This document shows, one piece after another, positions 21,366 to 62,640 of a stretch of DNA of 64,000 bases. The DNA lies in NCBI GenBank assembly GCA_963760795.1, contig CAVXEP010000020.1, forward strand, positions 64,001-128,000, read 5' to 3'. The stretch's first letter is position 1; each line of letters begins with the position of its first letter. The notes below the pieces were generated by a model. It did not search any database, was not told where the DNA came from, and saw only the letters and a program-made list of their open reading frames with translations. A program made the translations under genes and the position numbers. This DNA is from an uncultured delta proteobacterium. Lineage in GTDB: Bacteria > Desulfobacterota > Binatia > UBA9968.

Positions 21366-22350
21366 TTACTTATGAACCCGGTCCGCGCGCACCAGCACGT
21401 TCGGTGGAATCGTCAGGCCGATCTGCTTCGCCGCTTTCAGATTGACGATGAACTCGAACTTCATGGGCTGCTCCACCGGGAGGTCAGCCGGCGATCTGCC
21501 TTTCAGGATCTTGTCCACATAAGTAGCGGCGCGCCGAAACAAGTCCGGGAAGCTGGTGCCATAGGACATGAGTCCACCGGCGTCGACGTATTCTCTGAAG
21601 CTGTACATCGCCGGGTACCTGTGCTTAGCCGCAAACTCCACGATCAGTCCCCGGTTTAAGAAGACCAATGGGTCCGGCAGCTCGAAAAGTGCCTGGGGCC
21701 GTTCCGTTCCCCACGCCGGACAGGACCTTTTCAATCTCTTTCTGGTTTCGCGCCTCCATGGAGAGCAATGCCACTTTCAGCGCCTGGGCCGCCACTTGCG
21801 TGTCTTTGAAAGCGGTCGGCTGACCCGGCTGGTTTGGGTTCCATATGACACCGACGCGCAAGAGGCGTGGAAGAACTTCTTTGAGTAGCTCCAGCCGTTT
21901 GCCGCTCAAGTCAGGGGAAAGGTGGGTCAGCCCTGTGATGTTTCCACCCGGACGTGCCAGGCTGGCGACAAATCCTACTCCGACTGGATCGGTGACTCCC
22001 GCCATGACAATGGGGATGGTAGTGGTTTGTTCCTTGGCGACCCGGATCGCCGGTGTCGCCGAAGAAATTATCACATCAACCTTGGCCTGGACGAACTCAG
22101 CCACGAAACCTGGCAAGCGTTCTAACTTTCCTTCGGCCCATCGGTACTCGATCACGATGTTTTGGCCATCAACATACCCAAGCTCGCGCAGCCCCTGCAC
22201 GAATGCCTCGGCGTGATGCCCGGCAGTCTTCAACGATCCGGCCCCTACGTAACCTATTCGCGGGATCTTAGTTGGCTGTTGCGCCTCGGCGGATAAGCTA
22301 AACGTGAGGATCATGGTGCATAGAGCAACGCGATAGATTTTTCTAGTCAT
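21366..22350 (-). CDS. ABC transporter substrate-binding protein (ABC_sub_bind), tandem paralog, one frameshift near 21705
   Basis: ORFs 21625-22362 and 21366-21734 join; same motifs as 20308-21291. Confidence 0.85.
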
Positions 22351-22562
22351 GTCTGTTCTCACTTTCGATGGTTAACGCCGCAGGTTAGTCCTGCCGTTGG
22401 CTCCCTGTCAAGTTTTTCCTCCGCTGAGCATGACGCATTCGCGGTGGTGAAAACTGTTGCCTACCCATCGATTCGTGCTATGTTCCAGCCAAATTATTTC
22501 CCAGACGTGATGACGGCGGTGATCATTTCATCCTGCCATCCTTGCTCAAACGAGGAGGCCCT

Positions 22563-34612: not shown

Positions 34613-35612
34613 ATGTTTAGATCGAAATGCTTTGCCAGAATCATCCTAGCGATGGTGCTGATTCACCGGCACCGCACAGTCGGCGCAGGCACAACTGACG
34701 AAAATCAACGTCGGCTACAGCGCCATCAGCGGCGATGCGCTGCCGGCGTGGCTGGCCAAGGACGCCGGTATCTTTGAAAAAAATGGCCTCGACGTTCAAG
34801 CGGTTTTCTTCGCCGGCGGCACGACGGCGATCATGGCGTTGGTTTCCGCAGACACGCCGATCGCGCAGCTAGCCGGGCCCGCGGTAGTGAATTCCGTCAT
34901 GGCGGGTTCCGATGCGACAATCGTCGCCGGCGGCGTCATCTCGCTCAATTACTATTTACAAAGCCGAGCCGAAATCAAAACTCCCGAGCAGCTCAAAGGC
35001 GGGTCGGTGGCGGTCAGCCGCTTCGGCTCGTCTTCTGATTTCATCGCCCGCTACGCGCTGACAAAAATTGGACTCACGCCCGGCAAGGATGTCACCATCG
35101 TGCAGATCGGCAGCACCACGGCGCGCGTCGACGCCGTCATCGCTGGGCGCGTCCAGGCCACCGTGGTTAATCCACCGGCGAGTATCATCGCAACAAAGCG
35201 CGGTATGAACACGCTGGCCGACCTGCCCAAGCTCGGACTCGTCTATCAGCACACCGCGGCAGTCACGACTAAAAAATACATTCGCGAGAATCGCGACATC
35301 GTTCGGCGCTATGTAAAATCTCAAATTGAAGCCGTCCATCGTATTTACACCGACAAAGAAAGCGCCGTTCGCGCGTTGGGGCGATTCATCGGCCGCACGG
35401 TCGAGCGCGATGTCTTGGAAAAAACCTGGGAAAATTTAATCAGTGAAGCGGTGATGCCGAGAAAACAGTACCCGTCCATCGAAGGGCTGAAAACCATCCT
35501 CGCTTCAGAGCCGAAAGCCAAGTCGCACAACCCCGAGGACTATTTCGACGCGAGCTTCGTTAAAGAATTGGATCTGAGCGGTTATACCGATAGCCTCTAC
35601 AAGAAACGGTGA
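34613..35612 (+). CDS. ABC substrate-binding protein, NitT/TauT family, one frameshift near 34660 in the signal peptide
   Basis: The frame of ORF 34833-35612 extends upstream through QLTKINVGYSAISG..GIFEKNGLDV; ATG at 34613 follows GAGG in another frame. Confidence 0.82.
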
Positions 35613-38666: not shown

Positions 38667-39423
38667 ATGAGCGGTTATAAAACATTTAGCGAATGATTTG
38701 ATCAGCGCATTGGAACTATCCCAGCCGCCGATTGCCATATCATTTTGCGACGCCCCACCGCCAAATGTTCCGGCTTTCAATGGCATGGTTCCGGCTGGTT
38801 GCTCTTTCTGGCAGCAGGCGGCGACGCGGATGTTTTTTACCTCGACGAAAGACCATGAGCTTTGCGCCATCGGCGTCCACACGCACCATATGTCGCAGCC
38901 TTCACCGTCGCATCAGTCCGAGCTCGGTGACGCGCTTGCGGCCATGAGTGGGTTGGATTACGTGCGCGCCGAGGAGGTCGCGGCGATCCCGGTGGTGCAG
39001 CGCGAAGTGAAGCATGTCGTCTATGGTCCACTAGCGGAATGGCGCAGCGACCCCGAAGTCGTGCTCCTATTCGCGCACGCCCAGCAGGGATTAATCGTCA
39101 GCGAAGCGGCCAGCCGCGTCGACAAGGGTATGCCGGCGGCGATGGGACGGCCCGCTTGCGCCGTCGTGCCGCAGGTGATCAATCAAGGCCGCGCGGCCAT
39201 GAGTCTCGGCTGCTGCGGCGCGCGCGCCTACCTTGACATTTTACCCGACAGCGTCGCCATGTGGGCGTTTCCCGGCAACAAGCTTGAGCAATACTGCGCC
39301 GAAATCGTCACTCTCGCCCGCGCCAACCAGACTCTCGCGGTGTTTCACGCGCGGCGCAAGCAAGATGTCGAAGCCGGCAAACATCCGACGGTGCGCCAAT
39401 CCCTCGATCGGCTGTCATCTTAG
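38667..39423 (+). CDS. DUF169 family protein, one frameshift near 38686
   Basis: ATG after AAGGAG; LELSQPPIAI, GCSFW, CAIG, RPACA, SLGCCGAR. Confidence 0.75.
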
Positions 39424-39493
39424 GGAAACATTCAGTCCGTTCGGACAATCTCGCGCAAAGACGCAACGCACAGAAAACAAAAGAGGCAAGCCG

Positions 39494-40575
39494 ATGAAGT
39501 TCGCCCACTTCTCCCATGTCTGGAACAAGCCCGGTATGAACGCGGCGGAGCGCTACGGGCAACTGTGGCGCGAATTAGCAGCGGCGGATGAGCTCGGTTT
39601 TGACTATGGCTTTTGCGTCGAGCATCACTTCAATCCGCGCGAAAGCTGGATGCCGTCGCCGTCGATTTACTGCGCCGCGGCTGCCGCCCATACCCGACGG
39701 CTGCGCGTCGGCACCATGGGCAATGTCGCGCCCCTTTACGATCCGTTGCGTATCGCCGAAGACGCCGCGGTGCTGGACAACGTCGCCAATGGCCGGTTTG
39801 AACTGGGACTCGTCTCCGGCATTGTGCCCGACTTCTTCGGCCCCTACGGCGCTGATTTTAATAATCGCCGCGCGCTCACTCACGAAGCGCTGCTCTGCAT
39901 CAAACAAGCGCTAGCGAGCCAGGGGCCGTTCAGCTTCAACGGGGAATTTCACCAGTACCAGAACGTCACGCTCGGAGTTAAGCCACTCCAACAGCCCCAT
40001 CCGCCGATTTGGATTCATTCGCGGGACGCCGACACTCTGGCGCTCCTTGCCCGCGAAGGCGTCCATACCGGATATCTTTTCTTGGTGCCGCGCGACGAGG
40101 TTGCGCCGCGCTATCGCGAATATTTACGCCTGTGGAAAGACAGCGGGCCACACCGGCGAAGCCCAACATCGGCTACTGGATTTTAGTGTATGTCGATGAG
40201 ACCGACGCCAAAGCCGTGGCGAAAGCCAAACCCTATTTCGAGCACTGTTTCACCAATGTCTTTGGCACCCGCGCGGACGGTGGCATCGGCTACCAGCGGC
40301 TGGCCGAGAATCACGAGAAACGCGGCAATCCCCGCGGCGCCGAGATCGCGCGCCACTCGATCGACGTCGAATATTTGCGAGAAAAGAATCTAGCCTTTGT
40401 CGGCTCGCCGAAAACTGTCATCGAACAGATCAAGCAAGCGGCCGGCGAGGGTGTATTCAACACCGTCATGGCCGAGTTCAACATCGGCGCCATCGCAGAA
40501 GAAGATTTAATGCGCTCGATCAAACTCTTCGGCAGCGAAGTCCTGCCGGCTTTGCGCGACTTCGAACCCTATTGA
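39494..40575 (+). CDS. LLM-class flavin-dependent monooxygenase, frameshift near 40150
   Basis: MKFAHF, ADELGFDYGFCVEHHF, PLRIAED..VLD, PLQQPHPPIW; C-terminus VGSPKTV...SIKLFGSEVLP in ORF 40009-40575. Confidence 0.87.
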
Positions 40576-45508: not shown

Positions 45509-46462
45509 CTAGAAATTCTGATAGAGCCTTTCCACCGCCGGCTTGTTCTTGATCAGTTTCAGATCGAACAGTTGATTGACCAACGCTGTCCAGCGCTCGG
45601 CGCTCATTCTACCCAGCTCTTTATTTGGCGTATTGGCGGCGAGGATAAAGGGCTTCTGGACTTCGGCGGATTCTTTCATGGTCTCGCTGTCCATCGCCGG
45701 ATTTAACTTGACCATCCACGCATTGGCAGTTTCGGGCGCGCGCAGGTATTCGCTCCAGCCATCGCGAATCGCGCTGATCAAGTCGCGCACCTGCTTGGGG
45801 TTCTTATCGATATATTGGCGCCGCGCAATCACCACGGTGCCGTAAGGATTGAAACCGGCATCGGCGATGAGAAAGCTCGCCGCCGGCTTGTTCTTTTTCC
45901 TAGCGAGCAAAGGCTCCGCCGTAACAAAGCACTGCTGCGAGTAGTCGGCATCGGTAAGAAATTGCCCGATGCCGCCGGCGTAGGGAACAAGTTTAACTTT
46001 GGCGTTAGGAAATTTGCTTTGAAGAAAAAGCGTGTAGGGCGCGCCGCTCTGAATCGCCAGCTTGCCCGGCGCGGCGAAGACATCGCCAAGCGCTTTGAAT
46101 CCGCGTTCGGGGTGAACCATGATTCCTTGCGGATTGATTTGATAGACGGCAAATAGCGCGACCACGTCGGTGCCGCGCGCTTGCGAGAGCACCACTTCAT
46201 CCGCCGCCGCGATGCCAAACGGTGCTTTTGAATTAGCGACCATCTGCACCACCGGCGTGCCGGCGCCGCCTTCGGTAATCTCGACATTGAGACCGCCGCG
46301 CTTTTCGAAACTGCCGGCGAGCTTGGCGGCGTAAAAACCGCCAAACTCTGGCTCCGCCTTCCAATTAAGCGCGAGCGTTAGCGCCGGATGCTTCGCGCCC
46401 TCGGCCGCCTGAGCCGCAATGGGCAATAAAATCACGGATAGTAATAGGAGGAGAAAATTCAT
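45509..46462 (-). CDS. ABC substrate-binding protein (NMT1/THI5-like)
   Basis: LNWKAEPEFGGFYAA, GLNVEITEGG, FNPYG. Confidence 0.88.
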   Translation of the reverse strand: MNFLLLLLSVILLPIAAQAAEGAKHPALTLALNWKAEPEFGGFYAAKLAGSFEKRGGLNVEITEGGAGTPVVQMVANSKAPFGIAAADEVVLSQARGTDVVALFAVYQINPQGIMVHPERGFKALGDVFAAPGKLAIQSGAPYTLFLQSKFPNAKVKLVPYAGGIGQFLTDADYSQQCFVTAEPLLARKKNKPAASFLIADAGFNPYGTVVIARRQYIDKNPKQVRDLISAIRDGWSEYLRAPETANAWMVKLNPAMDSETMKESAEVQKPFILAANTPNKELGRMSAERWTALVNQLFDLKLIKNKPAVERLYQNF

Positions 46463-47232
46463 GATGACTGCCTTTCTGAGCTATGCCACGATCCCAGGGA
46501 TAGTCCCGAGACAAAATTAACCGCACCGACTAAAACGATACCCAGCAGAGAAGAGATTAGCACCGCCGCGAACACTCGATCAATTCGTTGTTGGGTGCGC
46601 GCAGCATCGACGACGCTGCCGAGTCCGCCGCCGCCGATGAATTCCCCGACGATGGCGCCGACCACCGCCAGGCCCGATGCAATCCTCAAGCCGGAGAAAA
46701 TTTGCGGCAGGGCGAAGGGGATTTTCAACATCCAGAGCAGTTGCCGCTTCGATGCCGTATACAATTTGAAGAGATCGAGCAACGCCGGCTCGGTCGATTT
46801 CAAGCCTAACAGAGTGCTGGCGATGATCGGAAACACCGAGACAATCGCCGCCGAGGCGATCACGGTGGGCTGGCCGAAGCCGAACCAGATCACCAAGAGC
46901 GGCGCAATGGAAATAATCGGTACGGTTTGAAAAAATACCGCGTAGGGATAAAACGCCCGGCGTGCCAAGTCGGAGGATGACAACGCGATGGCGAACATTG
47001 TCCCTGTGACAAAGCTCAGCAGTAGCCCGGCCAATGCGGAACTCAGCGTCGCCCAAGCCGCCAGCGCCAGTTCGGACCGATCGTCGAGCAGCGATTGCAA
47101 CACTTCGCTGGGCGCCGGTATTAAATACGACGGAACCCAGGCCATGCGGACGACAATCTCCGCAGCGCCGAGGGAAAGAACCAGCGGCAGCAAAGGCGGC
47201 AACCATGAAGCAAAGCGCGCTCTCATTGTCAT
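46459..47232 (-). CDS. ABC transporter permease (NitT/TauT)
   Basis: QTVPIISIAPLLVIWFGFG, GAIVGEF. Confidence 0.9.
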   Translation of the reverse strand: MTMRARFASWLPPLLPLVLSLGAAEIVVRMAWVPSYLIPAPSEVLQSLLDDRSELALAAWATLSSALAGLLLSFVTGTMFAIALSSSDLARRAFYPYAVFFQTVPIISIAPLLVIWFGFGQPTVIASAAIVSVFPIIASTLLGLKSTEPALLDLFKLYTASKRQLLWMLKIPFALPQIFSGLRIASGLAVVGAIVGEFIGGGGLGSVVDAARTQQRIDRVFAAVLISSLLGIVLVGAVNFVSGLSLGSWHSSERQSS

Positions 47233-48014
47233 GATGGCTCTACGCCCACCGGCACCGCGGTACCGACACGCCGGACTTCAGTGATGTATTCCAGCGATGT
47301 GCGCAGCTCGATGTTGCGGTTCTCAGGGAGCGCGATGCTTTGATCGCGGAGCAGCCGCGCCGGGCGCTGGGACAGAACGATGATCCGGTCGGCGAGAAAA
47401 ACCGCCTCGGTAACCGAATGAGTGACAAATAATACGGTCATTTTGAGCGCGCGCCAAATCTCGCGCAGCTGCATTTGCAGCGCGTGACGCGTCGGCTCAT
47501 CGAGCGCGGCAAATGGCTCATCGAGCAGCAGTAAGTTCGGCCGGGTCGTCAAGGCGCGCGCCACCGAAGTGCGCATCTTCATGCCGCCGGAAAGTTCGTG
47601 TGGATAGCGCGCGGCAAACTCGGTCAAGCGTACCCGGCCCAGCTCTTCGGTCGCACGGCCGTCGGCATCCGCCCTGGACCAACCAGCCAATTCCAGCGGC
47701 AATGTAGTGTTGCGCAACACGGTGCGCCATGGCATCAGCGTGGCTTCTTGAAAAACAAAACCGCGCGACAACACGCCACTGGTTACTTCAATCACAAGGC
47801 TGCCGCTATTCGGTTGATCGAGCCCAGCGGTGAGGCGAAGCAGAGAAGATTTCCCTGAGCCGGAAGGCCCGAGCAAAGCGACGAATTCACCGGGCTCGAC
47901 TTGAAAGGAAATTTGGTCGAGCACCAAACCGGTGCCGGCGAACGAGCGCGAAACCGCCTCGCAACGGATTGCCGCGCCGAACCGCTCTTGACCTAGTTGC
48001 AAATCGGCGATCAT
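47229..48014 (-). CDS. ABC transporter ATP-binding protein (NitT/TauT)
   Basis: GPSGSGKS, LSGGM, LLLDEPF, VTHS. Confidence 0.93.
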   Translation of the reverse strand: MIADLQLGQERFGAAIRCEAVSRSFAGTGLVLDQISFQVEPGEFVALLGPSGSGKSSLLRLTAGLDQPNSGSLVIEVTSGVLSRGFVFQEATLMPWRTVLRNTTLPLELAGWSRADADGRATEELGRVRLTEFAARYPHELSGGMKMRTSVARALTTRPNLLLLDEPFAALDEPTRHALQMQLREIWRALKMTVLFVTHSVTEAVFLADRIIVLSQRPARLLRDQSIALPENRNIELRTSLEYITEVRRVGTAVPVGVEPS

Positions 48015-48026
48015 CGACGATGTCGG

Positions 48027-49061
48027 TCAAATCCGCAACGAATAAAAATCAACACAGTTGTCGCGCAGGATAAGTTTTTTGACCTTATCCGAAAGGTCTT
48101 CCCGCGCCTGGAAGTGGGGAATATCGGCGAGAAACTGTTCGAGGGTCGGCCGCTCGTGCGGAAAGTCCGATGGATACATGATCTTTTTCTCAAGGCCCAA
48201 ACCGATAACGTAGGAAAGAATGCGTTCTTCCAATTCGCAAGAAAAGTAGATTGAGCCGTCCTTGACGTACTCGCTCGGGGCTTTGGTCAGTAGCGGTGCC
48301 TGGTGCGGCAACTTCTCATATTTTTCGTCGAGCCGTTCCATCAAATAAGGCACCCAGCCAACGCCGGCTTCGAGGAAAGCGATCTTAAGATCGGGAAAAC
48401 GCACCGGCCCGCCGTCGAGAAGAAAACTGGTAAAATGAATCTGCTGCGCCACAGCGTGTTCCAGGACCAAGATTTTCACGAACGAGTCTAAAATATCGAG
48501 GCCGAGCCCCGCGCTCGACCCGCCATGAACAGCTAACGGCACGTTCAATCGCACGGCGGTGCGATAGAGCGGATCGTACATCGGATGGCCGAGGCCTTTC
48601 GACAAACCGACGGCGGGAATCACCCCGCCGACCATTTGCAAATCCTTGACGCAGCGTTCAAGTTCGTCGGCTGCCGCTGCGACATCTTGTATCGGCAGCA
48701 AAGCCACGCCCCAGAGCCGCTCTGGCTCCTGGGCGAGATATTCGCCGTAAAGATAGTCGTTGTAACAGCGCGCCATCACCGTCGCCCATTGGACGTCTTT
48801 GATATGCGCCATGGCGAGACCCATGGTCGGATAGAGTACCGAACCCGCCACGCCGGAGGCATTGAGAAACATCCGCCATCTTTCTAAACAAGGCGTTGGG
48901 TCCGGCGCCTTGCGCGTGCTGCGCGGCCAGCCGTCGAGGGATGGAAACAGCGCGGTCAGCGCGCGCCGCCCCTCGAAGGGCGGCGGCAAATAGCGGCGCA
49001 GCTCGTCGTCGGTCTCCATCACATGGCCGTCGGCATCGATCGGTGCATAACTCGCGTTCAT
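48027..49061 (-). CDS. Amidohydrolase family protein (Amidohydro_2)
   Basis: IDADGHV, VLYPT, AVHG, LEAGVGW, YPSDFPHE, ILRDN. Confidence 0.88.
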   Translation of the reverse strand: MNASYAPIDADGHVMETDDELRRYLPPPFEGRRALTALFPSLDGWPRSTRKAPDPTPCLERWRMFLNASGVAGSVLYPTMGLAMAHIKDVQWATVMARCYNDYLYGEYLAQEPERLWGVALLPIQDVAAAADELERCVKDLQMVGGVIPAVGLSKGLGHPMYDPLYRTAVRLNVPLAVHGGSSAGLGLDILDSFVKILVLEHAVAQQIHFTSFLLDGGPVRFPDLKIAFLEAGVGWVPYLMERLDEKYEKLPHQAPLLTKAPSEYVKDGSIYFSCELEERILSYVIGLGLEKKIMYPSDFPHERPTLEQFLADIPHFQAREDLSDKVKKLILRDNCVDFYSLRI

Positions 49062-49073
49062 CCAAACTCCCTT

Positions 49074-50060
49074 TCACTTACCCCACAGCGATTTGTAGAA
49101 CCCTTCGCTGATAAGCTCCTGCACTAAGCTGTTGTCGTAGAATCGCTCGGCGGTGACATCCTTCGCCTGGGGAATCTTCGCCGCCTCTTGATCGAGCACC
49201 ACCTGCACGCCCTCGCGCTTTACCAGGGGAATCTTCTCGGTAAAGTCATAGGCGTATTTCATGCTGCCTTCGAGCATGCCGGCGTCATCGATCTTGGCAT
49301 ATTTGGTCAGGAGCTTTTTCGCCTCGTCCTTTTGTTGAAACATGAAGTGGGTGGCGCGGCCGAAGGCGCGCAGAAAAGCTTTGGCTTCGCCGCGTTGCTC
49401 GCGCAGATAGCGGCGCGTCGTCGTCAGTCCGGCGATGACAAAGTAAATTCGTTCGTCAGCGAGGTTGGCGATGATCCGGTTTCCCCGTTGTTCGGCGATA
49501 TGGAAACTCGGCGCCGACAACGGCGCCGCGCTGATCGAGCCATTGTTTAATGCCGCGGCCAATTCCGGCATGCCGCCGATCTGGACGATATTAACGTCAC
49601 GGCTGGGATTCAATTTATTTCTTTGCAGATATTCGCGCACGGCGAAATCCGAGGACGAGCCCAATCGCGTAACGCCAATTTTCTTGCCGCGCAACTCCTG
49701 AACGTTGGCGATCTCCGGCCGGGTCATGATGTAAAACCCGGCCACATTCATCACCGCGCCCATGAGGACCAGATCGCCGCCCTGAAGCGTGCTGGTCACC
49801 ACACTGCCGCTGTTGACCGACGAGATCGCCACCTGGCGGGCAAACATCGCCTGCGCCATGGTCGTCGAGCTGGCGATGTAGACGAGCTGAGCGTCGAGCC
49901 CTTCTTTCTTGTAAAACCCCGCTTCTTTGCCGATCCAGAACGGCAAGAACACCGAACTCACCGCCGAGTAGCCGACCACCAGCGGCTCGGCAGACGCATT
50001 TGCCATCGGCATGTGCCAACAAAACATCAAACAGAATAAATATCGTAATGCAGGCTTCAT
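49074..50060 (-). CDS. ABC substrate-binding protein, NitT/TauT family
   Basis: VGYSAVS, GFYKKEGLD, ELRGKKIGVTRLGSSSD, DNSLVQEL. Confidence 0.88.
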   Translation of the reverse strand: MKPALRYLFCLMFCWHMPMANASAEPLVVGYSAVSSVFLPFWIGKEAGFYKKEGLDAQLVYIASSTTMAQAMFARQVAISSVNSGSVVTSTLQGGDLVLMGAVMNVAGFYIMTRPEIANVQELRGKKIGVTRLGSSSDFAVREYLQRNKLNPSRDVNIVQIGGMPELAAALNNGSISAAPLSAPSFHIAEQRGNRIIANLADERIYFVIAGLTTTRRYLREQRGEAKAFLRAFGRATHFMFQQKDEAKKLLTKYAKIDDAGMLEGSMKYAYDFTEKIPLVKREGVQVVLDQEAAKIPQAKDVTAERFYDNSLVQELISEGFYKSLWGK

Positions 50061-50148
50061 AATCGTCGGGCCTTTCCCCCTTGGGCGCAAGCTAATCGGA
50101 ATTCCCCGATTTGGCAATTACCTTTCTGCGCCCACTCCCCACTTTTCA

Positions 50149-50239: not shown

Positions 50240-51647
50240 ATGGGTGTAAAGAAGCTTTTCCAATTAACTCGGTTTAGTTGCGTAATCGTTTTGGCATTGA
50301 GCTCGGCGGCACAGGTGGTCGCGCAGACGCCAATCCTCGGCGGCGCCAAGGAACGCCAGCCAAGCTACGGCGAGCTGGAGAACTTCACGATCCTGTCTTA
50401 CACCGATCTCGACGGCTGGGACCAGGCCGCCGAATTTCGCGTCAGCAAAGACGGCAAACACGCTTATGTTTCCAATTATCAAGGTTTCAGCATCGTCGAC
50501 GTCAGCGATCCGACAAAACCGAAGGTCATCTCCAAGGTCAAAAACAAGCGCCGGCGTGCAGAGCCAGTACATCGACGTTCTCGGTAATACTTTGGTCATC
50601 AATCAAGACGGCTTGCGCGATCCAAAGTTCCCTACTTGGGACGGCGGCATCCGACTTTACGACATCACCGATCCGGCCAAGCCGCGCGAAGTGGGATTTT
50701 TCAAAACCGACGTCGCGCCGCGCCGCGGCGTCCATGGTTTCTGGCTGCATGAAGACCCCAAACAGGGAAAATTCGCTTTCATCGCGACTACCATGGAAGG
50801 CTACTACGACCAGATCCTCTTGATCGTCGATATTAACGACCCGGCCAGTCCCAAGGAAGTGGCGCGCTGGTGGTTTCCCGGCCAATGGACCGCGGGCGGC
50901 GAAAAGCCCGGCGACAACTGGGTCGAGCCCGACCGCGGCCTGCGCGAAGGGCTGCCGAAAATCTGGGTCGCGCTGCACGACGTAACAACCTACAAGGATC
51001 GCGCCTACCTAGCGTACCGCGATGAGGGAGTGATCATTCTTGACATCAGCGATGTGCGCAAACCGACTAAGATCAGCCAGATCAAGTGGTCGCCGCCCGA
51101 GGAAGGCAATACCCACAGTATCGGCATCGTCATTCCGTCCCACGGCGGCAGACCCGATGTGATTATCGCCGGCGATGAAATCACTCAACCACAGCAATGC
51201 CCGTTCGGATACATGCATGTTCTCGACGTCCGCAACGAGAAAAATCCGGTGCAGATTTCCACCTTCCGGCTGCCTCTCAACCGCTTTTGTCCGCCCGACC
51301 GGCCCGGCCGGCGCTTCGGCATCCACGATATCGAGCGGATGATCAAGGGCAATATTGTTTTTAGCGCCTGGGAAAATTCCGGCTTTTGGGCAGTCGACAT
51401 TTCCGACCCGCATCAACCGAAAGCCGTCGGCCACTTCGTGCCGCCCGTGTTTCGCCGGGTGAATTCCGACGCAGGCCATGCCGATGATGTGTTTGTCCAC
51501 GATAATGGCTTGGTTTTCTTCAGCTCCTCCGATCCCGGCGGCGGCTTTTGGATCACGCGCTACACACCAGGCGTGAAAGGCACGGTCTCCTGGACCGAGG
51601 ACAACAAAAATGTGATCGTCAAGTATGACAAGCGGCCGGAGAATTGA
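50240..51647 (+). CDS. Secreted LVIVD-repeat beta-propeller protein, one frameshift near 50547
   Basis: ATG after AGGAGG, signal peptide; repeats IVDVSDP, LYDITDP, IVDINDP, ILDISD, VLDVRN, AVDISDP. Confidence 0.85.
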
Positions 51648-52053
51648 CCTCAAGATCTTCTTCCTACTCGGATTGATCGGTGCTTTCCTACCGTGGCCGG
51701 CCTTTGCCGGCCACGGAGTCGAGGACACCGTCGACAATCTTACTGCTGACCGGGTGAAGCAGCTGCTCGATGCCGGTGAAAAGCTGACATTCATCGACAT
51801 GCGCCCGGCCAAGGAGTATCAGCAGACTCGCTTGCCGGGCGCCAAGTCACTGCCCATCGCCGAAGTCGCTAATCGATTCAGCGAGATTCCCAAAACCGGC
51901 CGGGTGGTTCTTTACTGCGACTGCAAGCCTTACGACGTCGCCGACCGCGCCGTCTTCTTGGAGTATCGCGGATTTCGTAACATATTCATCATGCCTGAAG
52001 GCTACGCCGGCTGGGTTAAACGGGGCTATCCACTAGAGAAGACACCGCGCTAA
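51625..52053 (+). CDS. Secreted rhodanese-like domain protein
   Basis: FIDMRP..EY...RLPGA, VVLYCDC, EGYAGW; hydrophobic leader ending AFA. Start uncertain. Confidence 0.85.
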   Translation: MTSGRRIDLKIFFLLGLIGAFLPWPAFAGHGVEDTVDNLTADRVKQLLDAGEKLTFIDMRPAKEYQQTRLPGAKSLPIAEVANRFSEIPKTGRVVLYCDCKPYDVADRAVFLEYRGFRNIFIMPEGYAGWVKRGYPLEKTPR

Positions 52054-52412
52054 TGATCAGGCCGGGGCTCGCCGTACTGCTGATATCGCTGTTGTTGCCA
52101 TCATCGCTATGGGCTCACGCCTATCTGGTCAAGTCGGCGCCTGCCCAGCGTGCCACGCTCTATCGCGCGCCAGCGAAAATCCAACTATGGTTCAACGAGC
52201 GCTTGGAACCGCGCTACTCGTCGTTCACCGTCAGCTCAGCCGACGGCAATTCGATTGAGACCATCAAAAGCGCCGTCGACGACCATGACGCCAAGCAAAT
52301 CTTCGCCGTGCTGAACCCGCTGCCGCCCGGCCGTTACCTGGTCAAATTCAGGGTCCTATCGGTCGACGGCCACGTCGTCGAAGATCAGTTTCCCTTCACC
52401 ATAAAGCGATGA
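52053..52412 (+). CDS. copC: Periplasmic copper-binding protein CopC
   Basis: Signal peptide then HAYLVKSAPA (N-terminal His), LWFNE, VLSVDGHV. Confidence 0.93.
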   Translation: MIRPGLAVLLISLLLPSSLWAHAYLVKSAPAQRATLYRAPAKIQLWFNERLEPRYSSFTVSSADGNSIETIKSAVDDHDAKQIFAVLNPLPPGRYLVKFRVLSVDGHVVEDQFPFTIKR

Positions 52413-54428
52413 GCGAACTCGCCGCGCTGGTTCGTTTCGTTCATTTGACAGCGGCGATCGTTCTCGCCGGCGGTTTCGGCTTTTGGCTGTTTGTCGCGCG
52501 GCCAACGTTTGCCAGCGCCAAGGATGCGTCGGCGGCGCTGGAACATTTTATCCAGCGTTCGCAGCTACGGAATTTTCGTTGGTGCGTTGCCGTCCTCAGC
52601 GTAACCATGCTGCTTGGCCTATGGCTGCAAGCCGCCAATGTGAGCGGCTCATCGCGCCCTACTCTCGGCGCGCTATTCCCCCTCGTGACGGAAACCCAAT
52701 TCGGCAGAGTATGGTTAACGCGCATGGCGCTGCTGATCGTCATCGCCGTCCTGGTCAAACGAAAACCAACGGCAAATGAACCGCCAAACCTACTAGCGCT
52801 CGGTTTCACACTCAGTGGCTGTCTATTGGCTGGGTTGGCCCTCGCTGGTCATGCCGCAGCCGCCGATGGTGCTGAGTTTGCGTTGCAGGTGTCCGCCGAC
52901 GCTGTGCATCTGCTCGCCGGCGGCGTCTGGCTAGGCGGTCTCGTGCCATTGGCTTTGCTGCTGCGCCAATGTAATCGAAACGATGATGCGGCGAACCTTG
53001 CGGCGGCCAGAGAGGCTACCCGGCGCTTTTCGAGCCTGGCCTTGGCGAGCGTAATCGTTCTCATCTGCACCGGCCTCTACAACACGTGGAATTTAGTCGG
53101 CGGTTTCGCGCCGCTGTTTGGCACAGCCTACGGTAAGCTCTTGCTGGTCAAGCTCGGACTGCTTCTGCCGCTGCTCGCCATCGGCGCGGTAAACTTATTG
53201 CGGCTCAAACCGACAATCGTCGCGTCGAGCGACCGCGCAGGAGCAACCACCGGCGCGCTACGAAGCCTGAGCCGCAACGTCATCATCGAAGTTTTGCTCG
53301 GCCTTGCCATTTTGCTGATCGTCGGCCACATGGGCGTCACGCCGCCGGCGCGCCATGTTCCACCCGATTGGCCCTTGTCATTTCGCTGGGATTGGACGGT
53401 TCTTGAAAAAGCGCCGAGGGCGTTTGCCGAAGTTCAACGCGGCGCGATCTGGTTCACGATTGGTGCCATTGCGCTCATCGGCGGGATTTTCCAGAGACGA
53501 AAACGGCTTATTGCAACAATGATTGGCATTGGCGCGATGGCTTACGCGATCAATCTCGTGCACCAGGCGGTGCTGATCGATGCTTACCCTGACACCTACA
53601 AACGGCCGGCCGTAGCCTACCAAGCGATTTCCGTAGCCAACGGCGCAGCGCTCTATCAAGATAGCGGTTGCGCCGCTTGCCACGGCGACGGCGGTCACGG
53701 CGACGGCCCGGTGGCAGCCGAACTCAACCCTCCGCCACCCGATCTTACCGGCCGCCACGCCAACGCCCACACCGCCGGCGATCTGTACTGGTGGTTGAGC
53801 TACGGCGTCAAACCGGCTTCGGCGATGCCGGGGTTCAGCCAAAGCTTGAGCGATGAAGAGCGCTGGGATTTGATCAATTATTTGCGCGCGCTTGCCAGCG
53901 GCGAGCGCGCCCGCAATCTTGGCTCCGATAATCGACGACAACGCCTGGTTGGTCGCGCCGGATTTCAATTACGGCACATCCACGGGAGAATCGCGAACGC
54001 TCAAAGACCATCGCGGCGACAAGATCGTCCTGCTCGTCCTGCTCAATTTAGCAGCCACTGAAAAACGCTTGCAACAACTCGCCATCAGCTTGCCTCAACT
54101 CAGGGCCGCTGGCGTCGAAGTGATCGTCGTCCCAAACCTGATCGATTACCTTTACGTCGCCAATAAACTCCCCGGCCTGATTGTCAACGAAGGAATCAGA
54201 GAAATCACCGAAACCTATAAACTGTTCGCTCGCTCGTTTAGTGATGAAAACCTGATCACAACCACACCTCATGTCGAATTTCTAATCGACAAACAAGGCT
54301 ACATCCGCGCCCGCTGGTTGCCCGCCGAGAGCGAAGCTTGGAGCAAAATCGCAGGTCTTCTGTCGCAAGTAGAATTACTCAGGAATGAAAAGCCGCGCGC
54401 TGCCGCGCCGGACGATCATGTGCACTAA
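52409..54428 (+). CDS. copD: CopD copper uptake membrane protein fused to cytochrome c and a thioredoxin-fold domain, one frameshift near 53920
   Basis: TQFGRVW, AGHAAA, HLLAGGVWLGGL, RRFS, YGKLLLVK (CopD); CAACH haem motif with AMPGF; then APDF...LKDHRG.KIVLL...EFLIDKQGYIRARW, ending DDHVH. Confidence 0.85.
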
Positions 54429-58119: not shown

Positions 58120-58192
58120 TGGAGTGATGGAGTTCTGGAGTACTGGAGGGAGGAACCGTCTGACCCATCACTCCAACACTCCATTACTCCAA
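58120..58192. repeat. 8-bp periodic (tggagtNN)n repeat with an inverted copy (NNactcca)n
   Basis: tggagtga tggagttc tggagtac tggag ... catcactccaacactccattactccaa between convergent genes. Confidence 0.8.
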
Positions 58193-59680
58193 CCTAAGCA
58201 TTTGTCCCAACGCGAGGCCGAACGGCGCGGCGTGAACGCCGTACTGGCTAAAGTCATTGGCGAATGCGCACAGCGCCCAGTGCGCCGCGTCGCGATACTT
58301 GGCGTCCTTCGTCGCTTGAGCCAAATGAGAGAAAGAACGAAGCCGCGGTGCCGTTCTGTTCGATCAAAGTTAACCGAAGTCGGAGCGAAGCCGAATCCGG
58401 CGTGCAAATATCGTAGAAACCGCCGGCCGGGTTTTTCAGTTCTGATAAAATGAACGCCGCCAACCGTCGCGCCCGATCCACGTATGTCACCATCTCCCGT
58501 CACTTGGTAGGCGCGCAACAACGCGCTGCCCATCTGCGCTTGATCCTGCAGCAGCCCTGGCACATGCGCCGCGCCGTCGAAGTAGTGAAACATCCCGCCG
58601 CCATCGCTGCGGCAGTTCTGCCAGAGAAACTCCAGCGCGGCGAGCCCTCGCTCGCGGTAAGCCGGTTGGTCTAATAACACCGCAGCATCGAGATACGCCG
58701 CGCTGGCAACCCCGTTCGCGTCGGTGTAAATGCAGCGATCGATGATCGTGAAGAATTCCTCGCCATCGACGGCCGGCGGTTCATAACGCAACCAATCTTC
58801 GCAGCCGTGGAAAGTTCCGCTCGCCGGATCGAAAAGCCTGGCATCCAAGTACTCAATAATCTCCTCAGCCATGCGCCGGTATTCCGCCCGCTGAGTGATA
58901 CGAAATACAGACAAGCAATTGGCCAACAGCCCGGCCTCTTCCAACAGCAATTTTTCCCGGTGCGGATGGCTCCAGTCCGGGTTGGAAGAAGTGCGAAAGT
59001 AGGCGCCGCCTTGCTGATCGTAAAGCTCACCTGCGCGCATGCGCTCAAGAGTCAAACAAACCTGATCGAGATATTGCGTGTCGTCGGTCGCTTGATACCG
59101 CGCCAGCAAAAAATCATTAACTTGGGGATGGATAAATTTCTGCCCACGATCGTAACCGCCGTAGGAACGGTCCGCCAGCGCCATTACGCTCGCGGTGATC
59201 TCCGAAAGATTCGTTGCCAACTCCGCCTCATCCAACTGTCGCGCCGGCTCAGGCGTCGACTCTTCCGGTAGCTTGAGCCGCGGCACGAAGCTCCTCTTTG
59301 CGCTGCTGGTAGCTCATGTACACATCGATGAGCAATTCTTTGAACTGATCCGTCGGCAAATAATTTACGGCCGCGAGCAACTGCCCAGCGGGCGTCATGA
59401 AGGCGATGGTCGGCCAGCCGTTCAAGTTGTAACGCGCATCGACGTCGGGCCGCTGGGCATACTCGACCCGCAGCGGAATGAAGTAAGCATTCAAGAGTGC
59501 GATGTTTTCAGTCTCAGAAAACGCTTGCTCATCCATACGCTGGCAGAACCGGCACCAGAACGCCGACAAGTAAAGCATAACAGGTTTGTCCTCGGCGTGG
59601 GCCGCGCGGAAGGCCGCGTCGCCCCATTCATGCCAGGGGATGATATGAGCTTGGTTGGGAAGCGGTGAGAAACGGATCAC
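58184..59680 (-). CDS. Thioredoxin-domain (DUF255)/YyaL-SSP411 family protein, about three frameshifts (near 59275, 58487, 58330)
   Basis: PWHEWG..AF..A..EDKP, WCRFC..M, RPDVD.RY..GWPT; D..YGG, LYDQ.GG.YFR, PH.EK.L, LQDQA, GGFYD; manual C-terminus ...ALGQMLRLE*. Confidence 0.8.
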
Positions 59681-59959: not shown

Positions 59960-61237
59960 ATGCAGTTGACCCTTGCAGTCCATCCAATCACCGACATTCA
60001 ATTCGGCACGCGCTTGTCGCTCGACGGCAGCGCGCTTACGGTCGATGGCGAGGAATTGCGCCGCTTGGTGTTGGAAGATGCGGCCATCGATAGCGTCGCT
60101 TTCGACATCGTCCGTCCCGGCGAGAGCTGCCGCGCCGGGCCGATCTTCGATGTCGTCGAGCCGCGCGCTAAAGCCGACGGCGGCAGCGACTTTCCCGGCA
60201 TCATTGGCGCGCCGACTACCGCGGGGATGGGAACGACTCATGTACTCGCCGGCGCGGCGGTCTCGATCCTCGCCGAAATGTCCCCCGACCCGTCGCGCAG
60301 CGCCACCGGACGGGTGTTGGAGATGAGCGGCAGCGCCACCGCCGGCAGCGCATATTCAAAACTTTGTCATCTCTTGGTGGTACCGCAGACAAAATCAGGA
60401 TTGCCGCGCTCGGCGGTGTTAAAAGCCTACCGCGTCGCCAGCGTCAAAGTCGCCGTGCGTCTAGCCCGCGCCGCGCTTGCGCAGGCACCGGCGTCCACAC
60501 AGACGTTTGAGCCCATCGGCGCCGAAGACAAGAGCCGCGAAGGGTTGTCCCGGGTCGTTTATATCGGGCAGATTTTTTCGCGCCAGCGCAAACCGGCGGT
60601 GGACGAGCCGATTATTTATGGAACCAATACCGACGGCATGCTGCCGGTAATTTTACATCCCGACGAATGGCTCGATGGCGCGCTGGTGCCGTCGCTCAAC
60701 TCCTGGTTTGGCGGCACGGAGACTTATTTTTATCAAAATCACCCGGTGGTTCTCGATCTCTACCGGCGCCACCACGCGCGCGAGATAAACTTTGTCGGCA
60801 CCGTGGCCACCGTCGCCGGCAACGACAATGTCGACCGGGTAAGGCAGTGCCACGCCGCGGCGAATTTAGCCAAGTGGAACCTGCGCGCCGACGGCGCCGT
60901 GATGACCAAGTACGGCGGCGGCTTGCCCCACGCCGACCTGTCGGAGACCGCGCGCTTGTTGGAACATATGGGCATCAAAACCGCCGTCATGGTTTCCGAC
61001 GTGGCGCGCGACCGGCGCGTCGAATCGGCGCTCTTGTTCAACGTCCCTGAAGTCAACGCCATCGTCTACAACGGCGGCAACGGCACCGAATATGAAATTC
61101 CCAAAGCCGCCCGCGTCATCGCCGCCAAACCGGAACTGGCCGCGCTGCTTGCCGGACCCATGACGATAGATGCCAACAACATCATCGGCGTCACCAACCA
61201 GCAGGGCGCGTCGCGAATGAAATCGTTAGTCTATTGA
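59960..61237 (+). CDS. Glycine/sarcosine/betaine reductase component B proprotein-like (GrdE/GrdG/GrdI family)
   Basis: DIQFG, RPGES.R..PIFDVVEPR.K, FPG, THVL.GAAV, LHPDEWLDGA, YQNHP..DLY..H..EINF.G, GIKT, G.TN. Confidence 0.88.
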   Translation: MQLTLAVHPITDIQFGTRLSLDGSALTVDGEELRRLVLEDAAIDSVAFDIVRPGESCRAGPIFDVVEPRAKADGGSDFPGIIGAPTTAGMGTTHVLAGAAVSILAEMSPDPSRSATGRVLEMSGSATAGSAYSKLCHLLVVPQTKSGLPRSAVLKAYRVASVKVAVRLARAALAQAPASTQTFEPIGAEDKSREGLSRVVYIGQIFSRQRKPAVDEPIIYGTNTDGMLPVILHPDEWLDGALVPSLNSWFGGTETYFYQNHPVVLDLYRRHHAREINFVGTVATVAGNDNVDRVRQCHAAANLAKWNLRADGAVMTKYGGGLPHADLSETARLLEHMGIKTAVMVSDVARDRRVESALLFNVPEVNAIVYNGGNGTEYEIPKAARVIAAKPELAALLAGPMTIDANNIIGVTNQQGASRMKSLVY

Positions 61238-61301
61238 AGAAAACGCGAGGCATGAGTAGAAATCCGAACTCGCGCTTCATGCCTGTATGAAGGAGCTAAG
61301 T

Positions 61302-62585
61302 ATGCGCATCGTTTACTACGTCAATCAATTTTTCGGCGGCATCGGCGCGGAAGAACATGCCGGCGCGCCACTGGAATTTCGCGACGGCGCATTGGGGCCA
61401 GCGAAGTTGTTCGAACAGCTCATGGGCGAAGATACGACGGTAACCATGACAATCGTCTGCGGTGACAATCATGCCGTCGAACATCAAGACCAGGTAACCG
61501 CGGCGGTGTTGGAGAAGGTTCGCGCCACCGGCGCGGATCTCTTCGCCGCCGGTCCCTGCTTCGATGCCGGCCGTTACGGCATGGCCGCCGGCGCAATCTG
61601 CAGCGCCATACAGAGCGAGTTGGGGATTCCCGCGATCACCGCGATGCACGTGGAGAATCCCGGTGTCGATCTTTTCCGCGAGCAGCTTCACATCGTCGAC
61701 TCGGGGAACAGTATCGCCAAGATGCGCGATATCATCGCCACCATGGCAAAGCTCGGCAAAAAACTCGTCGCCAAGCAACCCATCGGGCTGCCGGCCGAGG
61801 AAGGCTATATCAGCCGCGGCCTGCTGCGCGATCAACTCGGCGACAAGACCGCGGCCACGCGCATGATCGATATGCTCATAGCCAAAATGAACGGCGAAAA
61901 GTTCGATTCCGAAATGCTGCCGAACGCGTTCGCGCCCGTGCCGATGCCGGCGCGGATTAAAGACATGTCGAAAGCCAAGCTGATGGTTATCACCGACGGC
62001 GGGCTGGTGCCCAAGGGGAATCCCGACAAGATCGAAGGCACTGCGGCGACTCGTTGGGGCGCCTATAACATCGAAGGCAGCGATGATTTACGCAGTGAGG
62101 ACTACGAAGTCTCGCACGGCGGCTACGATACGCGATTCGTCCAGGACGATCCCGACCGTTTGGTACCCCTCGACGCCCTGCGCGAGCTGGAAAAGAGCGG
62201 CGTCATCGGCAAACTGCACGAGGAGTTTCTCTCCACCTGCGGCCGTTCCAATCCGCTCTCGAACACCCGCCGACTGGGACGGGAAATGGTGGAAAAAATC
62301 AAGCGCGACGGCGTCGACGCGGTGATCCTCACGTCAACTTGAGGCACCAGCACTCGCAGCGGCGCTGCGATCACCACCGAACTCGAAAAGGCCGGCATCC
62401 CGGTCGTGCAAATCACCTCCGCGCTGCCGATCGCCAAAATGGTCGGCTCCAACCGCGTCGTTTTAGGCACTGGAATTGTCCATGTGACTGGCGACGCCAA
62501 GTTACCGCTGAAGGATGAAAAAGAGCTGCGCCGCAAGCTCGTCCAACAAGCCCTCGACGCGTTGCAGTCGAATGAGAAACAGTAG
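61302..62585 (+). CDS. grdB: Glycine/sarcosine/betaine reductase selenoprotein B-like (Sec at TGA 62340-62342)
   Basis: MRIVYYVNQFFGGIG, CGDN, AGP.F.AGRYG, ENPG, TDGGLVPKGNPD, HGGYD, DPDRLVPLD, VDAVILTST-UGA-GTSTRSGA...EKAGIPVV...VGSNR; 80 in-frame codons follow the UGA before TAG. Confidence 0.9.
62354..62370 (+). promoter_or_regulatory. Bacterial SECIS-like hairpin
   Basis: TCGCAGC-GGC-GCTGCGA; the apical loop starts with G, 18 nt after the UGA. Confidence 0.75.
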
Positions 62586-62640
62586 CAGGCGGCTGTAAAA
62601 CTCACATCTTCGGCGCGTTCCCAATGACAAGAAGACTTTT

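Follow-up and report, generated by a model that had tools for sequence, protein, structure and literature searches.

A propeller gene coupled to rhodanese-like, CopC and CopD-cytochrome c genes: a candidate periplasmic metalloenzyme operon of soil Binatia-type bacteria

What kind of enzyme is a Sec-exported, histidine-rich propeller whose gene runs into those of a rhodanese and of copper-handling proteins? The question is raised by positions 50240-54428 of a 64,000-nucleotide stretch of an uncultured delta proteobacterium (Binatia, UBA9968; contig CAVXEP010000020.1), here called the window, where four translationally coupled genes on the forward strand encode an LVIVD propeller, a rhodanese-like protein, CopC, and a CopD membrane domain fused to a c-type cytochrome domain and a peroxiredoxin (Prx)-fold domain (Table 1). 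Neighbouring genes overlap by 23 nt (propeller/rhodanese), 1 nt (rhodanese/CopC) and 4 nt (CopC/CopD-cytochrome c), and a signal or anchor is visible at the N-terminus of the propeller, the rhodanese and CopC. The row was first described in a sequence-only reading of the window, and its open reading frames (ORFs) and overlaps have turned out as given there, with the gene set conserved as a unit. Two further statements of that reading stand as well. It had held that this is not a copper-resistance locus, and a Pfam scan of 66 ORFs across the window found no genes for CopA/CopB, Cus or a sensor; it knew of no characterised system with this gene set, and none was found in the literature on LVIVD with copper, on CopD/CopC fusions and on Binatia with copper, CopD or rhodanese (supplements lay outside the search). 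Our answer, tentatively preferred and held at somewhat less than even confidence, is that the propeller is a periplasmic two-metal (His4-Glu) enzyme serviced by a dedicated copper-delivery/redox pathway, with the rhodanese as its enzyme-specific partner; domain identities, conservation, linkage and topology are the observations on which this proposed mechanism is built.

The propeller family and its solved relative

A homolog search with the propeller returned 312 proteins at E <= 0.001 among 1296 candidates; full-length members have 465-470 aa, and a functional name is attached to none of the 312. LVIVD repeats (PF08309, gathering cut-off 20.2 bits) score 49.5 bits in the C-terminal part encoded in the window and 65.8 bits in the ortholog of the related locus L018. 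The sequence-only reading had flagged five His at similar spots in successive repeats, of which four are conserved and lie where a metal site would be expected in a propeller. These first four motif His are invariant in 24 homologs (down to 45% identity), and in 70 homologs (down to 34% identity) three remain invariant and at least 90% of the sequences have the LHD His. The fifth, in GHADDV, varies and is S, T or Q in some rows, while the two Asp after it are invariant. An Asp-Glu pair, two Cys and this Asp-Asp pair are conserved as strongly as the motif His. That reading had also proposed a structure prediction to see whether the His side chains converge at the propeller axis. The AF2 model of the intact L018 ortholog (468 aa, 70-sequence alignment; pLDDT 91.1, pTM 0.87) has seven four-stranded blades, in which conserved His open the first strand of blades 3, 4, 5 and 6, with Q/Y in blade 2 and D-D in blade 7. 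The conserved residues are thus predicted to ring one mouth of the central channel, their convergence following from strand positions and homology. The propeller of the window has a Sec-type signal, and distant homologs (40-50% identity) have twin-arginine (Tat) signals of the form RRxFLQ. A complex prediction of propeller and rhodanese scored 0.21 against a mark of 0.32 and is used here neither for nor against an interaction.

Searched against the PDB, the profile of 24 homologs matched only Sb-PTE (5hrm, E 2.2e-17; 5ioj, E 4.4e-17), the phosphotriesterase or haloalkylphosphorus hydrolase of Sphingobium sp. TCM1, which has a binuclear manganese centre (PDB titles 5HRM, 5IOJ). Foldseek likewise ranked 5hrm first (E 5e-16), with generic WD40 propellers at about 1e-9, and in VIA 5ioj (Z 30.1) aligned over more residues (359) and at a higher identity (20%) than any other match listed; since every seven-bladed propeller reaches about Z 30 in the wide VIA search, this last method does not discriminate. 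A larger profile, A3, aligned to Sb-PTE in a more fragmentary way than A2, and the C-terminal third of the propeller searched alone against the PDB gave only a chance match to a T-cell receptor. In the HMMER alignment to the Sb-PTE chain, the GVH motif falls on position 258, NTHS on 389 and the Asp-Glu pair on 407, and both conserved Cys align. The metal ligands of Sb-PTE we take to be Glu201 (bridging), His258, His317, His389, Glu407 and His475, in an unconfirmed numbering that reportedly goes back to Mabanglo et al. in 2016. Positions 317 and 475 are left unaligned by HMMER; the His of LHD and IHD plausibly match them, judging by motif (PHEVSIS vs LHDITTY) and by the distance to the aligned block that follows, which is two residues off. 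By descent the propeller belongs to this family of binuclear-metal hydrolases; it does not come from the Cu-S or methanethiol-oxidase propellers, and nothing beyond the general fold was found to connect it with nitrous-oxide reductase, thiocyanate dehydrogenase or methanethiol oxidase. Passages of one paper list cadB1, an LVIVD repeat protein, with the genes for chloranilic-acid degradation in Herbaspirillum lusitanum TQ07, alongside a TAXI-TRAP binding protein and an FAD oxidoreductase (PMC13191619), which is a further hint that LVIVD propellers can be catabolic enzymes.

The rhodanese-like partner and the copper module

The linkage of the genes was surveyed in 39 loci from metagenome-assembled genomes (MAGs) pooled with 80 metagenome loci, all searched with the window's own proteins; these loci are mutually related and some may come from the same samples, so that the counts are not independent. 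Conservation of the neighbourhood, proposed in the sequence-only reading as a check, is evident: in 72/73 loci with a propeller of 75% identity or more and 450 nt or more of sequence behind it, a rhodanese gene lies directly downstream, its start usually overlapping the propeller stop by 19-23 nt. In 30 close loci the downstream flank reaches 2800 nt or more; the rhodanese is present in 29 of them, CopC in 21 and CopD-cytochrome-Prx in 19. The full set is present in 4/7 loci at 65-75% propeller identity. The sole exception among the 73 close loci, L012, has no rhodanese; in this Acidiferrales MAG a CobW/COG0523-type metallochaperone GTPase and an archease adjoin the propeller. The four-gene row is also complete in two MAGs labelled Burkholderiales or betaproteobacterium (L020, L021). 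Of 60 relatives of the source genome, 11 have a propeller ortholog, in a patchy distribution (10/30 genomes of the same genus), and the rhodanese ortholog occurs in 10 of these 11, the eleventh being cut by a contig end, and in no propeller-less genome (10 propellers and 9 rhodaneses if the unpublished genome G035 is left out).

The rhodanese-like protein scores 50.6 bits against a cut-off of 22.2 (PF00581), and its best NCBIfam match is NF041203, 'rhodanese-related (seleno)protein' (E 3.4e-13, 49 bits vs cut-off 115). In 20 orthologs and paralogs A28 and H30 are invariant and C98 and C100 are kept in at least 90%, C98 being the active-site Cys; the paralogs keep the predicted AxA/Gly-His cleavage site throughout and LYCxC in 19/20. 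Classically, Cu(II) is bound by an N-terminal Xaa-His, and CxC could plausibly serve as a Cu(I) or redox site.

CopC scores 84.3 bits against a cut-off of 23.3 (PF04234), and the L018 CopC matches NCBIfam copper_CopC with E 6e-23, below that model's cut-off. The CopD domain is found by Pfam (PF05425, E 6.9e-23, 81.5 bits vs cut-off 32.1) and by NCBIfam copper_CopD (E 6.5e-50, 170 bits, under the cut-off of 195). Hydropathy gives it ten hydrophobic segments with K/R-rich loops on alternating sides, which places the haem and Prx-like domains in the periplasm. The haem domain matches Cytochrome_CBB3 (E 5.8e-13, 49.4 bits vs cut-off 27) and has the CxxCH, distal Met and family match of a class I c-type cytochrome. 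Its best sequence matches in the PDB are 6h5l_B (E 8e-25) and the Thioalkalivibrio paradoxus cytochrome c552 (E ~5e-21, PDB range to 6e-21), to which it is 35-38% identical in a fold alignment. The Prx-fold domain matches AhpC-TSA weakly (E 2.8e-4, 21.2 bits, under the cut-off of 26), and a Foldseek search with a model of the periplasmic part (pLDDT 78) lists Bcp1 (3drn) first (E 1.3e-6), with TlpA and Sco structures further down. Twelve aligned fusions share the CxxCH, two invariant His after it, a Cys-less thioredoxin fold and a C-terminal (D/E)HVH tail; in the Prx-fold domain H617 is invariant and H666/H668 are kept in at least 90% of these fusions, and invariant in 23 sequences. Membership of the peroxiredoxins was rejected for want of a peroxidatic Cys, none of the 12 having a Cys in the domain.

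The module is not confined to propeller operons. The cytochrome-Prx part has full-length matches in 13 relatives (G035 included) and a shorter one in G029, and in at least 10/13 genomes the CopD-cytochrome-Prx gene stands beside rhodanese-paired enzyme genes, not alone. Four loci with the module away from the propeller were scanned (L048, L049, L050, L051). The first (L048, G029:C19:116500-136499) holds a row of six secreted Amidohydro_3 genes, three of them split in the assembly, of which 5/6 are each followed by their own rhodanese paralog, together with one CopD-cytochrome-Prx gene, two SBP_bac_6/8 genes and a VWA gene. In L050 (G008) Amidohydro_3 and rhodanese genes lie beside CopD-cytochrome, followed by VWA, MoxR-type AAA and DUF58 genes, and on the short contig L051 (G023) CopC and CopD-cytochrome occur with solute-binding proteins. 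Sec signals and the HxH metal motif are present in the amidohydrolases, and Amidohydro_3 genes also adjoin distant propellers in L034 and L041. One rhodanese per enzyme and one CopCD per cluster suggest that the rhodanese is an enzyme-specific protein partner, a chaperone or subunit, and CopCD a shared service. The pairing with Amidohydro_3 TIM barrels also argues against the sulfur-donor role that the sequence-only reading had considered, that is, for a Cu-S cluster specific to the propeller. L049 (G007:C9), syntenic with the window operon, has CopD-cytochrome-Prx, without propeller or rhodanese, directly downstream of a prokaryotic cytochrome b561 membrane domain fused to CopC; the fusion might provide a transmembrane electron route to CopC-bound copper. 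A bicupin beside these genes was rejected as a partner, being gentisate/5-aminosalicylate dioxygenase-like and having no signal peptide.

More distant propellers have other neighbours. In the loci of an alphaproteobacterial clade other genes come after the propeller. The first encodes a small secreted protein resembling a cupredoxin (Cupredoxin_1 E 8e-5 at one locus and 0.18 at another), the second a conserved 510-514-aa polytopic membrane protein of no known family with the predicted mature N-terminus HA(F/Y)GERYDLP, and the last a metallo-beta-lactamase-fold protein. A copper-transporter assignment of the 511-aa membrane protein was rejected (profile-profile probability 0.1 against CopD; hypothetical clusters only in the Atlas). 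Relatives with Tat signals (41-49% identity) lie inside copper-homeostasis islands in two loci, with two redoxins, a multicopper oxidase, DsbD_TM, MerR, an HMA protein, a P-type ATPase and CopC near the propeller in L035, and a multicopper oxidase and a P-type ATPase with HMBD and YHS domains in L044.

A proposed pathway and its alternatives

In the explanation that we prefer, the locus would be an accessory operon of soil Binatia-type bacteria, also present in some Burkholderiales MAGs, for a Sec-exported seven-bladed enzyme whose two-metal site of four His and one Glu at the axis would be inherited from an Sb-PTE-type hydrolase. The enzyme would be made with an obligate, translationally coupled rhodanese-like partner, the reductive copper-handling module usually coming next. 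Cu(II) would be captured by CopC through its N-terminal His site, an electron would be supplied by the c552-type haem domain fused to CopD, and CopD would then carry the copper across the membrane or hand it over periplasmically via the Cys-less Prx-fold domain and its His-x-His tail. The rhodanese-like protein (Gly-His N-terminus, CxC loop) would act as an enzyme-specific metallochaperone or redox partner, loading or servicing the His4-Glu site of the apo-enzyme as it folds in the periplasm. The reaction might be hydrolysis or, as with thiocyanate dehydrogenase (TcDH), an oxidation whose electrons go to the fused cytochrome. A propeller metalloenzyme with its own copper supply and electron acceptor was already the proposal of the sequence-only reading; TcDH gives it a precedent and the homology of the haem domain to c552 strengthens it, while copper in the propeller itself is deduced only from the neighbouring genes.

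Several observations weigh against this explanation. The sole solved relative, Sb-PTE, binds manganese and is a hydrolase. The column aligned to Glu201, the presumed bridging ligand, is variable (V/E/D/N), the invariant residues of that blade being a Q and a Y three to four positions later, so that the metal site may differ from that of Sb-PTE. The CopCD module is missing in 11/30 close loci with enough flank and is therefore either dispensable or acts in trans; these loci are otherwise syntenic with the window (SBP_5, DUF255 and GrdB genes), and the copper module thus behaves as an insertion or deletion. The alphaproteobacterial clade, at 55-65% identity, has the rhodanese in 0/15 and CopCD in 0/10 loci, and clear copper genes accompany only 2/9 distant-clade loci with usable flank. 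Finally, we know of no amidohydrolase-superfamily enzyme that uses copper.

Part of this evidence fits an ordinary metallohydrolase, a Mn, Zn or Fe propeller like Sb-PTE acting on a periplasmic ester or amide, beside which CopC and CopD-cytochrome would be a loosely coupled general copper importer, or would lower periplasmic copper and so guard Sec-exported His-rich enzymes from mis-metallation, and the rhodanese would handle a sulfur-containing product or keep the site reduced. The only solved relative is such an enzyme and its aligned ligand positions are conserved, the module also accompanies Amidohydro_3 hydrolases with their HxH motif, more than a third of the close loci (11/30) do without CopCD, and CopCD proteins are described, in passages of one paper, as likely importers to the cytoplasm (PMC8689200). 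By contrast, MAGs with the labels of different phyla keep the order propeller-rhodanese-copC-copD and its overlaps of stop and start, CopD-cytochrome-Prx stands beside rhodanese-paired enzyme genes in at least 10/13 genomes, and it is not obvious why such a hydrolase should require a cytochrome of its own. We regard this main rival as possible, though on the unlikely side. A bolder form of our preferred explanation, which we consider speculative and doubtful, would have soil bacteria turn hydrolase scaffolds of two unrelated kinds (Sb-PTE-type propeller, Amidohydro_3 TIM barrel) into periplasmic copper-dependent enzymes loaded via a new maturation pathway that runs from CopC through the CopD-fused c552-type haem and the His-tailed Prx-fold domain to a rhodanese-fold copper chaperone (Gly-His, CxC), one per enzyme; if true, it would describe a new copper-enzyme class and the first rhodanese-fold metallochaperone.

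The propeller could also be an oxidoreductase resembling TcDH, oxidising a sulfur-containing small molecule at a multi-copper site and passing sulfane sulfur to the rhodanese Cys and electrons to the CopD-fused haem. The systems run parallel in copCD, a cytochrome c552 and a thioredoxin-fold protein that lacks Cys and has been proposed to accept sulfur; the haem domain is homologous to c552, the obligate rhodanese retains its catalytic Cys, and a gene for an SsuA-like solute-binding protein lies upstream. Yet TcDH is absent from the PDB sequence matches up to E 10 and from the 50 matches listed by Foldseek and by VIA, both filled by generic seven-bladed propellers, so that no relation in sequence or fold appears among the matches listed. 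Only four His are conserved, the one-to-one rhodaneses of L048 suit a specific protein partner better than a shared sulfur carrier, and two unrelated hydrolase folds would both need conversion to oxidoreductases. This makes the TcDH-like alternative improbable.

About as slight is the chance that the locus is a decaying pseudogene cluster whose frameshifts are genuine mutations. The frameshift near 50547 noticed in the sequence-only reading is real, one base at 50549/50550 being missing in contigs of the runs X1 and X2 (DNA) and X15 (RNA library) relative to the window; that reading had the four genes right and missed both a second insertion, around 53917, where contigs of X1, X2 and X5 lack one base, and the C-terminal Prx-fold domain behind it. 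The compared contigs come from public soil runs and match the window at 90-99%; they also differ from it elsewhere and thus belong to relatives, a strain other than the source. The propeller is a single ORF in the 465-470-aa homologs and in L018, the closest intact relative, which is 97% identical over the propeller C part, and CopD-cytochrome-Prx lies in one frame in L018 (668 aa), in L010 and in ten other loci. Since L018 has the seemingly separate last ORF as the C-terminal domain of one 668-aa protein, the window contains two +1 frameshifts. Decay would agree with two such frameshifts inside 4.2 kb and with the intact ORFs of the flanking 5.5 kb common to L018. Against it, each extra base is absent from related contigs of three runs, the frames are open and conserved except for two bases, and several further window genes look broken: the DUF255 gene, one intact ORF of 498 aa in L057 and L058, is here divided at 59252-59286 into two overlapping ORFs, and the Pfam scan found partial ABC_sub_bind, NMT1 and luciferase-like ORFs elsewhere. 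The source genome is a 35-contig MAG, and sibling long-contig MAG loci such as L033 have genes fragmented throughout. Assembly error is hence judged likelier than decay: both frameshifts are most likely consensus errors, and the broken genes across the window suggest a general frameshift load in the assembly. A thiolase-like gene of the window also consists of two abutting ORFs.

Nitrous-oxide reductase carries CuZ with seven His ligands on its propeller and has a C-terminal cupredoxin CuA domain. A Cu-S cluster of this type, or a copper centre as in methanethiol oxidase, with sulfur supplied by the rhodanese, was what the sequence-only reading had in mind and is now very improbable: His do recur at the same spot of successive blades beside rhodanese and CopCD genes, but the sole detectable solved relative is a binuclear-manganese hydrolase, four conserved His stand against seven and the 468-aa ortholog has no cupredoxin, CuA or other domain besides the propeller (nitrous-oxide reductase membership rejected), SBP56 (PF05694) matches one stretch of 19 residues with 15.8 and 22.3 bits, short of its cut-off of 34 (methanethiol oxidase/SBP56 membership rejected), and the rhodanese family pairs with TIM-barrel hydrolases too.

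Parts of each of the four genes are matched at 90-99% identity by contigs from a single soil RNA library (X15); these contigs, which come from relatives and possibly from DNA carry-over, are at most a weak hint of expression. A sigma-70 scan found no promoter-like site and the terminator-like sites were no better than in shuffled sequence, so that the operon boundary could not be drawn from the scan. Upstream and divergent lie genes for an NMT1/SsuA-like solute-binding protein, Amidohydro_2 and a NitT/TauT-type ABC transporter (ATPase, permease, second binding protein); of these, the binding-protein gene next to the operon also stands upstream in several Binatia loci, but L018 has lost most of it. 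Further downstream a GrdB-like gene (glycine/sarcosine/betaine reductase selenoprotein B) follows just after a Gly_reductase component B gene; its ORF ends at TGA, and if this is read as selenocysteine (U352, TSTUGTST) the frame runs 81 residues more, to a TAA.

Table 1. Features of the locus, its surroundings and compared loci; positions are those of the window unless a locus is named, and a slash within a motif marks the predicted cleavage site.
Feature	Position	Strand	Details
Propeller, N-terminal part	50240..50548	+	Sec-type signal peptide MGVKKLFQLTRFSCVIVLALSSAAQVVAQ, first blade; LVIVD E 2.4e-5
Propeller ORF 1	50204/50240-50587	+	Stop at 50587 caused by insertion; aligns with N-termini of 465-470-aa homologs
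Extra base, +1 frameshift splitting propeller gene	50549..50550	+	One base
Propeller, other six blades	50547..51647 (ORF 50466-51647)	+	LVIVD E 2.7e-13 (Pfam)
GVHGF	50727-50741	+	His at 50733 (H63)
ALHDV	50970-50984	+	His at 50976 (H144)
NTHSI	51108-51122	+	His at 51114 (H190)
GIHDI	51318-51332	+	His at 51324 (H260)
GHADDV	51474-51491	+	Fifth His; Asp-Asp at 51483-51488
Other conserved propeller residues	Asp-Glu 51174-51179; Cys 51198, 51288	+	
Rhodanese-like protein, periplasmic, 142 aa	51625..52053	+	Pfam Rhodanese E 2.8e-13
Predicted mature N-terminus Gly-His, AFA/GHGVED	51706-51717	+	Rhodanese
LYCDC motif	51910-51924	+	Rhodanese
CopC, 119 aa	52053..52412	+	Pfam CopC E 1.3e-23
Predicted mature N-terminal His, WA/HAYL	52113-52127	+	CopC; cleavage site judged by eye
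D-G-H motif	52365-52376	+	CopC
CopD membrane domain fused to class I c-type cytochrome domain	52409..53917 (ORF 52409-54061)	+	Pfam
Haem motifs	CAACH 53669-53683; HANAHTAGD 53756-53782; SAMPGF 53819-53836	+	Class I c-type cytochrome
Extra base, +1 frameshift in CopD-cytochrome-Prx gene	53917	+	One base
C-terminal peroxiredoxin/thioredoxin-fold domain, Cys-less	53918..54428 (ORF 53892-54428)	+	Weak AhpC-TSA, Foldseek Bcp1
Prx-fold domain motifs	APDFNY 53955-53972; PHVEFLID 54267-54290; DDHVH tail 54411-54425	+	
Solute-binding protein, Amidohydro_2 and ABC transporter genes	45509-50117	-	Divergent, upstream
Gly_reductase component B gene	59960-61234		
GrdB-like gene	61287-62588	+	
Split or truncated window genes	58171-59680 (-), 21628-22362 (-), 34833-35609 (+), 39233-40183 (+), 15964-17143 (+)		
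CobW/COG0523-type GTPase and archease	L012 11847-12740	-	Acidiferrales MAG
Cytochrome b561-CopC fusion	L049:6130-7296	+	
Alphaproteobacterial loci	L029:11085-13015, L027:11165-11590, L031:11499-13040, L025:6218-7816, L122:1717-3246, L131:1182-2723		

Comparison with known systems

If our preferred explanation holds, the operon would represent a widespread soil system in which a metalloenzyme is accompanied by proteins of its own that capture, reduce and hand over copper, and would offer a tractable model for the acquisition of the correct metal by Sec-exported enzymes in the periplasm. It would also give a function to the common but unexplained CopD-cytochrome c fusions and a new role to rhodanese-fold proteins. 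Being kin to Sb-PTE, which degrades flame retardants, the family is also of interest to a search for the ancestors and natural substrates of that enzyme.

With Sb-PTE the propeller shares the seven blades, and the residues at positions 258, 389 and 407 and two Cys align with the invariant residues of the family; the two differ in that identity is only 16-20% and the Glu201-aligned residue is variable here. The excerpted literature treats Sb-PTE as a stand-alone phosphotriesterase for flame retardants. The rhodanese has the fold and active-site Cys of PspE-type single-domain periplasmic rhodaneses and of NF041203, and differs from both in its predicted mature N-terminus (AxA/Gly-His), its CxC and its 1:1 pairing with secreted hydrolase-fold enzymes. 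Sb-PTE, to our knowledge, has no rhodanese, CopCD or cytochrome partner. The copper module resembles YobA/YebZ of E. coli and YcnJ of B. subtilis in its CopC and CopD domains, its adjacent genes and the predicted N-terminal His and D-x-H of CopC. It differs by two extra CopD membrane segments, the c-type haem domain and the Cys-less peroxiredoxin-fold domain, and by the dedication of CopD-cytochrome-Prx to operons of secreted metalloenzymes.

A parallel at the level of the whole system is TcDH. Passages of Berben et al. (2017) describe a thiocyanate-induced tcdh cluster with copC, copD, tatA and fccAB next to TcDH. In those of Britikov et al. (2022), CytC552, which is His-rich at its termini and whose gene lies upstream of the tcdh operon in all TcDH-positive Thioalkalivibrio, copurifies with TcDH and takes its electrons in vitro. 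Parts of a 2019 Frontiers paper on Thiohalobacter and Guyparkeria report a TcDH with a Tat signal and Cus copper genes in place of Cop, and, just upstream, a thioredoxin-superfamily gene without redox Cys, whose product the authors propose as sulfur acceptor. Common to that system and the present one are a periplasmic seven-bladed propeller (with copper in TcDH), copC/copD, a c552-type cytochrome and a Cys-less thioredoxin fold. The propellers themselves have no homology detectable among the matches listed, and a Tat signal in TcDH contrasts with the Sec-type signal here; moreover, the cytochrome and the thioredoxin-fold domain are here fused to CopD, and the rhodanese is an obligate neighbour. 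Three accessory elements of the sole characterised copper propeller dehydrogenase system thus recur at this locus, one of them, the haem domain, as a homolog.

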